Below, in pieces: positions 22,215 through 53,327 of a stretch of DNA of 64,000 nucleotides. Source of the stretch: Bacilli bacterium (GTDB lineage: Bacteria > Bacillota_I > Bacilli_A > RFN20 > CAG-826); contig JAKSUL010000002.1 of the NCBI GenBank assembly GCA_024409055.1, positions 20,217-84,216 of the forward strand. The letters are read 5' to 3'. Made by a program: the position numbers and the translations under genes. Position 1 is the stretch's first letter; every line of letters begins with the position of its first letter. Below the pieces are notes generated by a model. It made no database searches, was not told where the DNA came from, and saw nothing but the letters and a program-made list of their open reading frames with translations.

Positions 22215-22545
22215 ATCCGACCCTGTAAGCCATGTTATGTCGAGGGCGACTATTTATCTCAGATTGCTCTGGCGTCTTTAGCTTCAATTCGCCTCGGACG
22301 CTTCCCCTACCAAATTTGGGTTTCTCGCTTGCGGGGTTTGCCTCGTTTCATCTTAACGTCGCCGTTAAGCTCGTCTCTGTGGCACCTTAGGGATTCCCGA
22401 CTCAAGAGTCGTTCCTCCGCCGTTACGCTCTCCAGCGTACCTAGGGTTATTTATTGCCCTAGCACAATCACTACGGCCATCGCAGGCCGTGCGAGCATGG
22501 ACTTTCCTCTACCTAACAAGTAGGCAGCGGTCGCCTGGGTCGGAT
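22215..22545 (-). ncRNA. rnpB: RNase P RNA (B-type)
   Basis: Minus strand carries GAGGAAAGTCCATGCT, AAACCCAAATTTGGTAGGGGAA and ACATAACATGGCTTAC; terminal ATCCGACCC/GGGTCGGAT P1 stem; follows gpsB/divIVA as in Bacillus. Confidence 0.95.
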
Positions 22546-30070: not shown

Positions 30071-30082
30071 GACCAATAACGC

Positions 30083-30206
30083 ATTCTTTAATTCCGGACT
30101 TTACCGTTGGCCCCGGAATTTCACCGGATCATGCCATCTCTTTTTTTGAGACAGCTCGCGGGCTTTACCGCCAGTCGACGTAATTCTCGTCGCCCTGAAG
30201 CATCTT
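30083..30206 (-). promoter_or_regulatory. FMN riboswitch (RFN element)
   Basis: CTTCAGGGCG...ACTGGCGGTAAAGCCCGCGA...GATCCGGTGAAATTCCGGGGCCAACGGTAAAGTCCGGAATTAAAGAA. Confidence 0.93.
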
Positions 30207-46238: not shown

Positions 46239-46955
46239 TTATTGAATGTCGACGACTGGTTTATCGCCGTATAAAGCGTCTTTGCTTAAAAGATTATCAA
46301 GAACATACATCGCCACGATATCAAAAACTGGGATCCATAAGCATACAAGCCAAATGATAGATACCTTACTTTTGAGTTTCCTGTTTCTGACTATCCTCTG
46401 ATTCAATAGATAGCAAAAGACGCATAAAGAATCATTTAAGATGGTCAAGAAAGTGACGGCATAGAAAAACGCGTTAGACAAAAACGACGTTAGGGAAACA
46501 AGCAAGGACGCGGCGGCCAAAAAACCGAGAACAACGACCCCTGCAAACGGGAAAAACACAGCGCTTATTAAAGCGAAAGCAGAGCCGGCAGTTAGCGAAA
46601 TAGCTGCTTCGACAAAGAAAATAATTTCCAACGGGATAGAGGCAAATTTCATAGCCCTCGAAAACCTGATTGGGTTTTTATCACCGTAACGACCATAGAG
46701 CAAAGACATCATCGTTTTTAAAATAGAGATGCCAAAAATTACAGCGAACAAAATGTAGAAAAGGTTTATCTTTATCCATTCGCCTTTCTTCGCGAGCATA
46801 AGAACGAGCAAAACAAGCAAGAATAGTGAAATGGAATAAAGAAGAATTAACGAAACAATCGACCAGGCTTTATAGAAAGAAAAACTAAAGTGCCTCTTTT
46901 TTGAATTCCACTTATTTATTCTTTTGATTAGTTTCGCTTTTCTCTCGTTTGACAT
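46239..46955 (-). CDS. Hypothetical multi-pass membrane protein
   Basis: AT-rich ORF with about five hydrophobic segments; no family recognised. Confidence 0.65.
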   Translation of the reverse strand: MSNERKAKLIKRINKWNSKKRHFSFSFYKAWSIVSLILLYSISLFLLVLLVLMLAKKGEWIKINLFYILFAVIFGISILKTMMSLLYGRYGDKNPIRFSRAMKFASIPLEIIFFVEAAISLTAGSAFALISAVFFPFAGVVVLGFLAAASLLVSLTSFLSNAFFYAVTFLTILNDSLCVFCYLLNQRIVRNRKLKSKVSIIWLVCLWIPVFDIVAMYVLDNLLSKDALYGDKPVVDIQ

Positions 46956-47148
46956 ATGAAGCTTTTATTACAAGACTAAATAACATATTTATTATGAAAC
47001 GAAACAATTGATACAGGCATCGTTTTTTGTTTAGGGAATGCAAACGAAAACGTCGAACTAGGTGTTAACGTTTCTACTAAAGAAGAAACGGTTTCGTTAA
47101 CAAAATGGCAAACACTCACTATTTCTTGGCGGTTTATCTTATAATTAA

Positions 47149-47476
47149 GGGGCTAGTTTGAAGCAAATCACCCGGGATGTGCGGAACGAAGTTCTCGCCG
47201 ACCGATAGAGACAAATAGGGATCAATCTCAAATTAGCATAGCGCGATGGATGTGTTAGGTCGCGCTAATGCGGACAGTATCGCCCAAGCCAAAAGAGGAT
47301 GCCTTCAGGAACGTTCCGTAAATCCGGGGCCTGAATTAATCGATGGTGACGCTCCGCACAAGATGTAGATCTTGAGCATGTGGCCATCCCAAGGAGGATG
47401 AAACACCAGTAGCCATGGTTCGCCTAAGTGCGAGCAGTTGGCTGCAAAAGGTGTTTTCGTTGTGGGATGGTTTTTC
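47149..47476 (+). ncRNA. Candidate large structured RNA or cis-regulatory leader of unknown family
   Basis: TATAAT at 47140-47145; stems 47178-85/47353-60, 47236-46/47260-71, 47304-09/47330-35; 87-nt rod 47384-47470 followed by a T tract; no convincing ORF. Confidence 0.65.
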
Positions 47477-47523
47477 TTTCCTTTCGTGAACGCCTAATTA
47501 GTTCAAAGGAAGGAGAAATATAC

Positions 47524-48441
47524 ATGCAAAATCTTGAATTAATTAAATTTGTAAATGGTGGCACTGAACTTGAAGTAAATGTCTCACCGGAAGAAAACAC
47601 GGTTTGGCTCTCAAGAGATCAAATGGCGGCACTTTTTAATAGAGACAGAACCGTAATTTCAAGGCACATAAAATCGGTTTTAACCGAAGAAGAACTCGAG
47701 GAAAAAAGCAACGTGCATTTTTTGCACATTCCAAATTCCGACAAATCGGTAGCATTTTTCAGTCTAGACGTAATTCTCTTGGTAGGATACCGCGTCAAAT
47801 CCAAAAACGGCATCCTTTTCAGAAAATGGGCGAGCAATATCCTCAAAGATTACATGATCAAGGGGTATGTGGCTAATGAGAGGCGCCTTTCTGCTCTCAA
47901 TAAAACGATCGAATTGCAATCAAAAATCATCGCCACTGCTTATGAGATTGATTCCAACGACGTCAAGAAGGTCGTCGATTCTTATATCGATGCCCTAACG
48001 CTTTTGGACAGTTACGATCATCAATGTGTTCCAGAACTCAAAAAAGATGAGAACTATGTTCAGCTAACATCAAGCGACATAAGAACCATCATCAAAAACA
48101 TGGAGTACTATGGCAAAAGCGATGTCTTCGGTGTAGAAAAAGAAAAAGGAAAAATCGATGGAATTCTCGGGGCAGTTTATCAAAACGTCTTTGGCCAAGA
48201 GGTTTATCCGTCAATTAAAGAAAAGGCTGCGCATCTACTCTATTTCATGGTTAAGGATCATCCCTTCGCTGACGGATGCAAAAGGATTGCGGCCGCTTCG
48301 TTTTTAACATTCTTGGCAAAAAACAAAGCATTGAATCCAAAACTATCTTCACCTGTTCTAGTTGCCGTTACCTTGCTTACGGCAGAGTCAAACCCAAAGG
48401 ATTTCAAATCAATCATAAAAGTGATTGCAAACATCATTTAA
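47524..48441 (+). CDS. RhuM-like N-terminal domain + Fic/Doc domain protein
   Basis: TVWLSRDQMAALF...SVAFFSLDVILLVGYRVKS...FRKWA; HPFADGCKRIAA Doc-type motif; SD AAGGAG before ATG at 47524. Confidence 0.85.
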   Translation: MQNLELIKFVNGGTELEVNVSPEENTVWLSRDQMAALFNRDRTVISRHIKSVLTEEELEEKSNVHFLHIPNSDKSVAFFSLDVILLVGYRVKSKNGILFRKWASNILKDYMIKGYVANERRLSALNKTIELQSKIIATAYEIDSNDVKKVVDSYIDALTLLDSYDHQCVPELKKDENYVQLTSSDIRTIIKNMEYYGKSDVFGVEKEKGKIDGILGAVYQNVFGQEVYPSIKEKAAHLLYFMVKDHPFADGCKRIAAASFLTFLAKNKALNPKLSSPVLVAVTLLTAESNPKDFKSIIKVIANII

Positions 48442-48529: not shown

Positions 48530-48889
48530 TCAATATTTAAATGTCGGGGCGATGTGAAATAAACACGAGTTTGCTTCGAGCGTCTTCTTTTTTTCAAGAA
48601 TCTCCGTGGCTGACCCTCGAAAGAGAATTCCCCCTGATTTCAGAAAGGTTTTGCTCGCAGCAAAATTCATGCCGGTGCTTTTTGATATGACTTTGATCTG
48701 CTCCATCGTGGGATTCTCAAAAGGCTCAATACAAATCGAATACACCGTATCGTCGAGATCGATTTCTTCCCATTTTGTAGTGGCAATTTTGCATCCACAC
48801 TTGGGGCATGAAAGATTCAATGCTGGCTTCTCGTATTCTTGAAGCATTTCGGCACCGCAATCGGGGCAAATGTATTTATTGCTTTCCAT
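48530..48889 (-). CDS. Zn-ribbon + L7/L12-CTD-like small protein (immunity-like)
   Basis: CPDCG...CPKCG, then IKVISKSTGMNFAASKTFL; start MESNKY. Confidence 0.55.
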   Translation of the reverse strand: MESNKYICPDCGAEMLQEYEKPALNLSCPKCGCKIATTKWEEIDLDDTVYSICIEPFENPTMEQIKVISKSTGMNFAASKTFLKSGGILFRGSATEILEKKKTLEANSCLFHIAPTFKY

Positions 48890-49625
48890 CTTGGTTCCTT
48901 TCAATTTCTTGAAGGCTCTTAACAGTTTTTAATTCTTCGATCGTGTGATAAGAATATGCGTATCTTTCCACTTCGTAGCCATCTAATGTGGTGTATCGAT
49001 CTTCACTGATACTTTTAACACTTATGGAATCTGCGATTATCCCCTGCAGGTACTGAGGTTTGCTTCTGCTGTAGCAAGAAGCCAAAACAAGAGAATTCCT
49101 GAAATATTTGGAGTGTTTTGATATGAAATCGGAATTGACACGAAGCCCAATCTTTTTAAGCAAGAAGTACATAAACACACCAATGCTTCTCGTGTTTCCC
49201 TCCCTAAAGCAGTGTATCTGCCATAACTGCTGAATAATACTTGAGGCTTTCAATACTTTTTCCTTGGCAGAAAGGGAATCCCACTTAATCGCCAGGAACT
49301 CCTTTTCCAAATCGCCCATCTCTTTTTCTATATAAGAAGCAGGCGTGTAGTCAACCGAAGCTCCCTCTAAAATGGGCTCACTCTTATAAATGGTTATGCT
49401 TCTGAATTCTCCAGCCCATTCAAAGATCGGAGAAAATAAAAACGCATGTATTTTCTTTATATCGTAGACGGAATTGATCTCGAATCCATTCTTTCTTAGA
49501 GCGATGATTCTAGCCGGCACAATATCACTCTCGAATCGTTCTAGCACAGACCGATTATCAATTCCCAATTTGTTTTTCAAAACCCCGGTTTGTTCATCAA
49601 CATATGGATCGTGAGCCTTAGACAT
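48876..49625 (-). CDS. Fic family AMPylase toxin
   Basis: DPYVDEQTGVLKNKL, WAGEFR, HCFREGNTRS Fic motif; start MSKAHD. Confidence 0.9.
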   Translation of the reverse strand: MSKAHDPYVDEQTGVLKNKLGIDNRSVLERFESDIVPARIIALRKNGFEINSVYDIKKIHAFLFSPIFEWAGEFRSITIYKSEPILEGASVDYTPASYIEKEMGDLEKEFLAIKWDSLSAKEKVLKASSIIQQLWQIHCFREGNTRSIGVFMYFLLKKIGLRVNSDFISKHSKYFRNSLVLASCYSRSKPQYLQGIIADSISVKSISEDRYTTLDGYEVERYAYSYHTIEELKTVKSLQEIERNQDGKQ

Positions 49626-49938
49626 TTTGGTACATCCTCCTGATCGCGAATTCATAAGTCTCTAGATCTATTACGCCCTCTTGAAAGAGCCCAAGAAGTT
49701 TTTTCGCCTTATCAGATGGAGCCTTGGAATCAACAGTGCTGATGCCGATTGCAAAATCCACAAGATTATCAGAATCTGGTAACGATATCTCAAAGGGAAT
49801 CCCCTTCCTCAGGGACACTTGGTTCAGGAACAAAGAAATCGCGTAGCTAGTCGTAATACCCAACTTATCGAAAATAACTTCGCATTCTTTTTTGACATCC
49901 GGCGACACTCTGGTGTGCACAATTGAACTTTTTTCCAT
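49618..49938 (-). CDS. RelB/DinJ-type RHH antitoxin fused to a VbhA/FicA-like helical domain
   Basis: VHTRVSPDVK..CEVIFDKLGIT.S.AI.LFL.QV....GIPFEI, then FAIGISTVDSKAPS...FQEGVIDLE. Confidence 0.75.
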   Translation of the reverse strand: MEKSSIVHTRVSPDVKKECEVIFDKLGITTSYAISLFLNQVSLRKGIPFEISLPDSDNLVDFAIGISTVDSKAPSDKAKKLLGLFQEGVIDLETYEFAIRRMYQNV

Positions 49939-53242: not shown

Positions 53243-53327
53243 TGGTGGGCCCAACAGGAATCGAACCTGCACGGATCGCTCCACTAGATCCTAAGTCTAG
53301 CGCGTCTACCAGTTCCGCCATAGGCCC
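53243..53327 (-). tRNA. tRNA-Leu (anticodon TAG)
   Basis: GGGCCTA acceptor stem, CTTAGGA anticodon loop, long variable arm, GGTTCGATTCC, encoded CCA. Confidence 0.95.

Follow-up and report, generated by a model that had tools for sequence, protein, structure and literature searches.

A full-length copy of the COG3943 RNA, much larger than its Rfam model, as a candidate OFF-by-default leader of a RhuM–Fic gene in a Bacilli genome

As judged from sequence comparison, the structured RNA encoded directly 5′ of a RhuM–Fic gene in a Bacilli genome represents the COG3943 RNA family at full length; this family is catalogued with no recorded function and, in our alignments, far exceeds its Rfam model in size and complexity. 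We consider it probable that the RNA serves as a cis-acting leader that is OFF by default, silencing the downstream RhuM–Fic/Doc gene and responding to a trigger. Specifically, an Rfam 15 scan of the window (the whole 64,000-nucleotide stretch of DNA that was analysed, with positions counted from its first letter) placed RF02941, "COG3943 RNA", at 47348–47454 (+) with a score of 94.0 bits (gathering score 71.8; E = 5.1e-16). The match is full-length (model positions 1–108 of 108), and only 2 non-standard pairs are present in its cmscan alignment. This locus and the Rfam family share the same helices, the same conserved linkers (GCUCC, GGCC and AACACC), the position 5′ of a COG3943/RhuM gene and the host phylum; the gene 3′ of the RNA on the same strand is indeed RhuM (COG3943), the gene class after which the motif is named. 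A sequence-only reading had called the element unassigned and had matched it to no known family, and with this confident match, a result that the reading itself had named as a refutation, novelty can no longer be claimed for the 3′ third of the RNA, the part covered by RF02941.

Nothing credible besides RF02941 was returned by a permissive Rfam scan of 46900–47600 (E ≤ 10), in which no match to ROOL, GOLLD, HEARO, OLE, raiA, the T-box or any riboswitch was seen. Rfam lists RF02941 under the type "Gene; sRNA", with no function recorded. The motif reportedly goes back to a comparative screen by Weinberg et al. 2017. The main text of that paper (PMC5737381) does not mention the COG3943 RNA, and a literature search on "COG3943" found no paper on the RNA. 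With respect to structure, the 108 positions of the Rfam model correspond to the 3′ third only, leaving out P0, P1, P2, the junction, the mid-domain, T and the hairpin that masks the Shine–Dalgarno (SD) sequence (Table 1). The model also treats GCUCCNCAC as unpaired, whereas here GCUCCNCAC is the 3′ strand of the long-range helix P3; the model starts with this conserved, seemingly unpaired block because the P3 partner lies ~80 nt outside it.

Table 1. Features of the COG3943 RNA locus and its downstream gene (positions in the window)
Feature	Position	Strand	Details
−10 promoter box TATAAT	47140–47145	+	sequence; aligns with a near-invariant TATAAT column block of alignment A1 (60 homologues)
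5′ subdomain	47153–47236	+	P0 closes a locus-specific interior
P0	47153–61 (CUAGUUUGA) with 47228–36 (UCAAAUUAG)	+	86% paired, 8/8 pairs change on both sides, 60 homologues
P1 and hairpin	P1 ~47167–72 with 47218–22; hairpin 47183–87/47191–95	+	P0 interior, this locus
P2 hairpin	47239–46 with 47260–67	+	99.8% of cells paired, 8/8 pairs change on both sides
P3, 5′ strand UGCGGA	47269–74, partner 47353–58	+	100% paired in 60 sequences
P3 extension GU (2 bp)	47277–78, partner 47351–52	+	follows a CA bulge after the P3 5′ strand
Junction AUYGCCCAG, here AUCGCCCAA	47279–47287	+	nearly invariant columns in A1
Variable mid-domain	47288–47347	+	closed by P4, GCCA 47288–91 with UGGU 47344–47
Inner stem of mid-domain	47304–09/47330–35	+	inner module AACGUUCCGUAAAUCCGGGG 47310–29
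RF02941 match	47348–47454	+	contains P3 3′ strand, P5, P6, P7, P8, P9
P5	47360–64/47369–73	+	within RF02941 match
P6	47385–89/47396–400	+	within RF02941 match
P7	47403–07/47450–54	+	within RF02941 match
P8	47409–15/47439–45	+	within RF02941 match
P9	47418–23/47430–35	+	within RF02941 match
Terminator-like helix T	47383–47475	+	GCCAUCCC 47383–90 with GGGAUGGU 47464–71, plus U-tract 47471–75
SD-masking hairpin	47471–47518	+	anti-SD UUUUUCUUUCCUU 47471–83 with AAGGAAGGAGAAA 47506–18; fold −17.8 kcal/mol, z = −4.3
RhuM N-terminal domain + Fic/Doc domain gene, 305 aa	47524–48441	+	motif HPFADGCKR; PF13310 2.6e-17, PF02661 2e-08

The region from 47140 to 47526 consists of the −10 box, ~325 nt without an ORF >40 aa, the U-tract and, ~48 nt 3′ of the latter, the start codon at 47524 that opens the 305-aa gene. 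Within the structured stretch (47149–47476), where no ORF exceeds 40 aa, the predicted fold has an energy of −116.5 kcal/mol (z = −3.2 against dinucleotide shuffles), and G+C content is 0.45–0.49 within the RNA region as compared to 0.31–0.40 in the flanks. The TATAAT at 47140–45 matches the near-invariant −10 of the 60 homologues, most of which have the extended type (TGnTATAAT); it lacks a good −35 and was not among the promoters listed by a two-hexamer promoter scan. The best explanation of these sequence features is an RNA of ~325 nt transcribed from this box, with a start that probably lies near 47151–53. The sequence-only reading is thereby borne out in its description of a large, highly structured and conserved non-coding RNA, richer in G+C than its surroundings and devoid of a credible ORF, which has a −10 box of its own and ends in the manner of a terminator. 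A start 5′ of the TATAAT had been considered on account of CUAUU at 47119–23, which is complementary to GAUAG at 47204–08 and resembles the P1 of the family, and was dropped when P0 was identified immediately 3′ of the −10 box, with a geometry like that of the homologues. Some 50 nt 5′ of the −10 box there is also a terminator-like hairpin (47069–47090, +) of 7 bp with a weak T run, which may insulate the cassette from upstream transcription.

Support for the extended structure comes from alignment A1, which comprises 60 sequences that are <93% identical to each other and on which a 14-helix model was tested. Overall, 90.9% of the cells in this model hold standard pairs, a value reached by 0 of 500 shuffles (75.4% in the shuffles), and sliding the partners by 1–3 columns leaves only 29–46% paired. 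Changes on both sides were found for 51 of the 73 pairs, and the covariation score is 0.392 versus 0.154. RNAalifold, run without the 14-helix model, returns P2, P3, P5, P6, P7 and P8, and the unconstrained minimum free energy (MFE) fold of 47150–47526 reproduces the consensus, with P0 present. Helices 9–14 of the model, which make up the RF02941 region, are 77–100% paired across the 60 sequences. Relative to the Rfam model, P0, P1 (P1a/b), P2, P3 and P4 fall beyond its 5′ edge or span it; P4 together with the interior of the 5′ domain is aligned less securely than the other helices. For the P0–P1 interior of this locus, no close sequence relative was found among the fetched loci, so the fold drawn for this interior comes from energy alone.

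The long-range helix P3 provides the top covariation signal in a mutual information (MI) scan and is among the helices predicted by RNAalifold. Its pair types over the 60 sequences include columns with GC in 39 and AU in 21, and with UA in 30, GC in 21, CG in 8 and AU in 1. This helix also decides the fate of a long-range stem that the sequence-only reading had drawn between 47178–85 and 47353–60, with extensions further in: the complementarity is restricted to this locus, with 0 of 30 other loci able to form it, and the stem, which competes with P3 for the same strand, was rejected, the conserved partner of 47353–58 being 47269–74. The hairpin that had been placed at 47236–46/47260–71 fared better. 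It exists and has the 13-nt loop described, the conserved and covarying part being the 8 bp of P2; its outer three pairs use bases that in the family belong to the conserved P0 and P3. The P2 loop carries the invariant GUGUUAGG (47252–59), and P2 is again predicted independently by RNAalifold. R1, a covariance model built on the 76-nt core of the 5′ part, scores 56.4 bits (E = 7e-14) at 47221–47297 of the window.

In terms of unpaired positions, GUGUUAGG and AG.AU.GCC.A stand out as invariant blocks. One P2-loop base, G47248, covaries with the Y of the junction, C47281 (G–C in 35 sequences, A–U in 38, 1 exception), and we tentatively read the two as a lone tertiary pair, with only two pair types in the sequences at hand. 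The GUGUU of the P2 loop and the AACAC at P7 are potentially complementary; both are invariant and hence beyond a covariation test. A pairing of the P2 loop with the CAUCC strand was rejected as a family-wide feature, since it reaches ≥5 bp in only 26 of 75 sequences, namely those of type A and this locus, the others forming 2–4 bp; the overall mean, 3.5 bp, differs little from the 3.2 bp obtained with shuffles. Within 295 nt, GGAUG occurs five times (47175, 47248, 47297, 47396 and 47465) against one CAUCC (47385–89), a density ~15 times that of the window; only the P6 and T copies are family-wide, and the P2-loop copy is common to one subtype. Separately, most members (types A and B; for example L016 and L024) have a conserved palindrome, GUCGAC, where the 5′ subdomain seems to be unpaired (A1 columns ~110–120), in the equivalent region of which this locus has CCCGGG (47171–76); such a palindrome could allow RNA dimerisation. 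Taken together, the alignments describe a conserved, structured and sensor-like 5′ domain with compensatory changes, as would be expected of a riboswitch.

Between this 5′ part and the Rfam region lies a modular mid-domain, for which at least 5 different inserts were found across loci. The closing helix P4 is 80% paired, and 5/5 of its pairs change on both sides in the 60 sequences, numbers that are to be read with the uncertain alignment at this place. The inner module AACGUUCCGUAAAUCCGGGG is common to this locus, L029, L039, L064 and L069, with stems that are pairing-consistent by eye, and the inner stem (47304–09/47330–35) noted in the sequence-only reading is real on the strength of this variation in homologues with the same module.

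Whether the 5′ part and the Rfam part belong together can be judged from their distribution. When loci are oriented and laid side by side, ~200 nt 5′ of RF02941 are plainly conserved, and this holds in ~130 related loci from rumen and gut Bacilli. Of 301 genomes from the order to which the window belongs, 25 contain RF02941, and among 399 genomes sampled evenly across the phylum its matches are restricted to the window's family. A pattern built from the 5′ part only recovered 71 stretches from rumen or gut metagenome-assembled genomes labelled Bacilli, Erysipelotrichaceae, Bacillales or Mollicutes, and the Rfam-type 3′ domain is present in every one of the 69 matches whose downstream sequence is long enough to hold it. 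Among family members in metagenomes, 57 of 62 pass a regular expression for the 3′ domain, 4 more have this domain by eye and 1 is truncated; 14 further matches obtained with a loosened 5′ pattern are due to chance. One metagenome copy (L170:6198–6450, +) has the 5′ domain and mid-domain with no 3′ domain, and looks truncated or disrupted. The R1 model, searched in 401 genomes of the phylum, matches the same genomes and places as RF02941 and adds only two more: a third copy in the genome of the window and a weak match in the same class (E = 8e-4, 27 bits); save for the latter, both models are confined to the window's order and mostly to one family. On this sequence evidence, the 5′ part and the Rfam 3′ part are one RNA, the two always co-occurring.

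Besides the copy described here, the window's genome contains a second (L002; G000:C14:8411–8652, −), located 5′ of a DUF1016/YhcG nuclease gene, and the third just mentioned (L127; G000:C63:1–250, −), which is cut by the contig end, is missed by RF02941 and is found by R1 only. Elsewhere, 2–3 cassettes of leader plus gene were seen per contig (L056 and L068; G243:C51, G253:C19 and G170:C3), including two contigs with two cassettes ~1.6 kb apart, and the leader may mark a repeated, swappable gene slot. The genes upstream of it in other genomes are unrelated housekeeping or regulator genes. No match was found in phage and plasmid collections and only 1 among 2.9 million viral contigs, and carriage on mobile elements was dropped from consideration on this near-absence. 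Two catalogued RNAs were also seen in the window: an RNase P class B RNA (22221–22542, −; 248.8 bits), which places the organism in Bacillota, and an FMN riboswitch aptamer (30077–30205, −; 76 bits against a cut-off of 66.2).

The genes that follow the leader are interchangeable, and the leader is always directly 5′ of one. This cargo includes RhuM–Fic, the DUF1016/YhcG PD-(D/E)XK nuclease, DUF4314, BrnT and small proteins, the last being of 110–120 aa without a family and, in one case, of 60 aa. In PADLOC, the RhuM–Fic gene matches the defence candidate PDC-S23 (2.7e-101) and the DUF1016 cargo the defence candidate PDC-S02. The cargo genes would act as toxins or defence genes; no protein antitoxin is found beside RhuM–Fic/Doc or DUF1016 here. 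No coherent metabolic pathway emerges among them, and the gene context yields no candidate ligand. In three loci (L014, L054 and L110) the leader's SD is left without a start codon, and ~40 nt later comes a brnT toxin gene that has its own TATAAT, followed by a second short ORF that is possibly its antitoxin; here a brnT cassette seems to have replaced the original cargo. A separate gene of 259 aa with a Fic domain lies just 3′ of RhuM–Fic on the opposite strand (48876–49655).

The 3′ part of the RNA has the features of an expression platform, with two mutually exclusive helices and an SD-masking hairpin. Specifically, the strand GCCAUCNN (47383–90; GCCAUCC) can pair either locally with GGAUG at 47396–400, forming P6, or with the 3′ arm of T, which reads NNGAUGG[C/U] directly before the U-tract. 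T and P6 share this 5′ strand, so they exclude each other. Positions 1–6 of T hold 99–100% standard pairs in 75 sequences, and the shared strand covaries with both partners: given as shared strand/partner/partner, A/U/U changes to G/C/C at position 4, and at position 7 C/G/G changes to A/U/U and on to U/A/A, both partners following. Compensatory change maintains P6 and T alike, as is characteristic of a switch, and the comparison with riboswitches made in the sequence-only reading is sustained by these two conserved alternatives. The multi-helix 3′ rod that it had described is likewise real, being built from T, P7 and P8; the run at its end is five U, C and three U, not six U.

In energy terms, the T state of this locus (−131.0 kcal/mol) is 7.5 kcal/mol more stable than the P6 state (−123.5 kcal/mol), which makes OFF the likely default. 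T would be an unusual terminator, an 8-bp stem enclosing a ~70-nt rod, and may do no more than fix a stable 3′ end. On the same strand, an SD and a start codon follow at a median of 53 nt 3′ of the U-tract; among the 61 loci with a start found, MFE folding pairs the SD in 59, the anti-SD being a pyrimidine stretch whose first bases are those of the U-tract. For most of the 14 loci in which no start was called, the first gene is short or decayed, a BrnT cassette follows a vestigial SD, or the sequence is too short. As the hairpin fills the stretch from the U-tract to the start, there is no room for a second promoter, and transcription of the gene must therefore begin at the promoter of the RNA. 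Since the SD is masked whichever of the two states is modelled, forming P6 would not by itself turn on translation. The loop of P6 is itself SD-like (AAGGAGG) and is followed by a mini-ORF of 4 codons (AUG AAA CAC CAG UAG; 47398–47412, +), which in the other major subtype reads AUG UAA; a leader peptide from it is unlikely, since 12 of 75 members have GACG instead of GAUG (ACG for AUG). The SD-like loop could be a decoy for the anti-SD.

We favour a model in which these elements form three parts: a sensor-like 5′ region (P0/P1, the P2 loop with GUGUUAGG, P3 and AUYGCCCAG), a swappable mid-domain and a 3′ expression platform. By default, GCCAUCC would pair with the arm before the U-tract, T would form and transcription would stop; alternatively, GCCAUCC would pair with the local GGAUG, giving P6 and read-through by RNA polymerase. 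A second OFF layer would be provided by the pyrimidine stretch from the U-tract pairing with the ribosome-binding site. The model supposes that a trigger exists, be it a small molecule, a protein, an RNA or cleavage by an RNase, which would act through the 5′ domain to favour P6. The alternative helices under selection, the masked SD and the fixed position 5′ of a gene are what speak for such a leader, together with family membership and the extended conserved structure; counting against it are the lack of a shared pathway among the cargo genes that would hint at a metabolite, and the Rfam type sRNA. A bolder version, which we hold to be possible rather than probable, is that the family represents a new class of large sensory leader, in which the 5′ core binds a signal, flips P6 and T and so licenses toxin or anti-phage cargo. 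Candidate signals would be a small molecule or a macromolecule made on phage infection or stress, and candidate cargos the interchangeable single-gene toxin or anti-phage genes of uncultured rumen and gut Bacilli.

The RNA might instead act mainly in trans as a stable non-coding RNA, for example an RNA antitoxin, with the terminator setting the ratio of abundant RNA to rare toxin mRNA. Such a role would fit the layout, in which promoter, structured RNA, terminator and toxin-like gene follow one another as in type III toxin–antitoxin (TA) loci and RCd22–abiF; as in the former, a predicted terminator (T with its U-tract) stands between RNA and gene, here ~48 nt before the start codon, and most transcripts could end at the more stable T. 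The lack of a protein antitoxin beside RhuM–Fic/Doc and DUF1016 and the Rfam type sRNA point the same way. We nevertheless regard an antitoxin as unlikely: the same RNA precedes at least 5 unrelated protein families, BrnT included, all of which one RNA would hardly bind, and the second short ORF of the BrnT loci may supply an antitoxin of their own. Furthermore, tandem repeats, as found in type III systems, are absent from 47050–47600 (Tandem Repeats Finder, minimum score 30), and the conserved SD-masking hairpin and anti-terminator P6 are cis features that a pure antitoxin would not need.

A leader without signal input is also conceivable, namely a constitutive damper that holds horizontally acquired toxic genes at a fixed low level, the alternative helices only guiding co-transcriptional folding. 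That both OFF elements are thermodynamically favoured, with the SD masked in either state, is in keeping with damping, as are the diverse, mostly toxin-like cargo and a gene context free of ligand clues. This explanation strikes us as improbable in view of the ~200 nt of conserved 5′ structure, the invariant unpaired blocks and the candidate tertiary pair, which exceed what damping needs, and of the anti-terminator P6 being itself kept by compensatory changes. Finally, the view of the sequence-only reading that this is a novel large RNA of ROOL/GOLLD type in a tRNA-linked island, for which its size, ornate fold, G+C content above that of the flanks and a tRNA 5.8 kb away (53246–53327) would speak, is very improbable given the confident RF02941 match with none to ROOL or GOLLD, the constant place as a 5′ leader whose RNA is coupled to the SD of the next gene, the near-absence from phage, plasmid and viral collections, and upstream neighbours that vary between genomes, so that a tRNA island is not a feature of the family.

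Rfam records a 108-nt motif without a function, and the real unit is ~3 times larger. This unit comprises a covarying long-range helix, a sensor-like core, a conserved, putative two-state terminator switch and a masked ribosome-binding site, and its place 5′ of swappable toxin-like or defence-candidate genes turns an orphan motif into a testable regulatory RNA. The corrected alignment and structure can be used for rebuilding the Rfam model. If a trigger exists, the leader could show how bacteria silence single-gene toxins or defence effectors without a protein antitoxin.

With respect to known systems, our preferred OFF-by-default leader resembles the attenuating riboswitches and T-box leaders of Bacillota, which are likewise long, structured 5′ leaders with their own promoter. 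The COG3943 RNA falls in the T-box size range, and as in those leaders, anti-terminator and terminator helices that exclude each other, with a U-tract, come 3′ of a conserved domain that resembles a sensor. It differs in having no Rfam match to either class, in a terminator stem that encloses a large rod and in serving interchangeable toxin or defence candidates rather than one metabolic pathway. Another parallel lies in the toxin mRNAs of type I TA systems such as hok and tisB, in which a folded 5′ region masks the toxin SD until the mRNA is remodelled or processed. Here too the SD of a toxin-like gene is hidden by a long, folded 5′ region; no antisense RNA partner was seen at this locus, however, the cargo does not consist of small membrane peptides, and the leader structure is conserved across many different genes. 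[quoted passage not shown] RCd22, the abiF-motif RNA and type III TA systems share with the COG3943 RNA a structured RNA 5′ of a toxic or defence gene with a terminator between the two, whereas the COG3943 RNA has no sequence or structure similarity to them and, as one family, serves many unrelated proteins.
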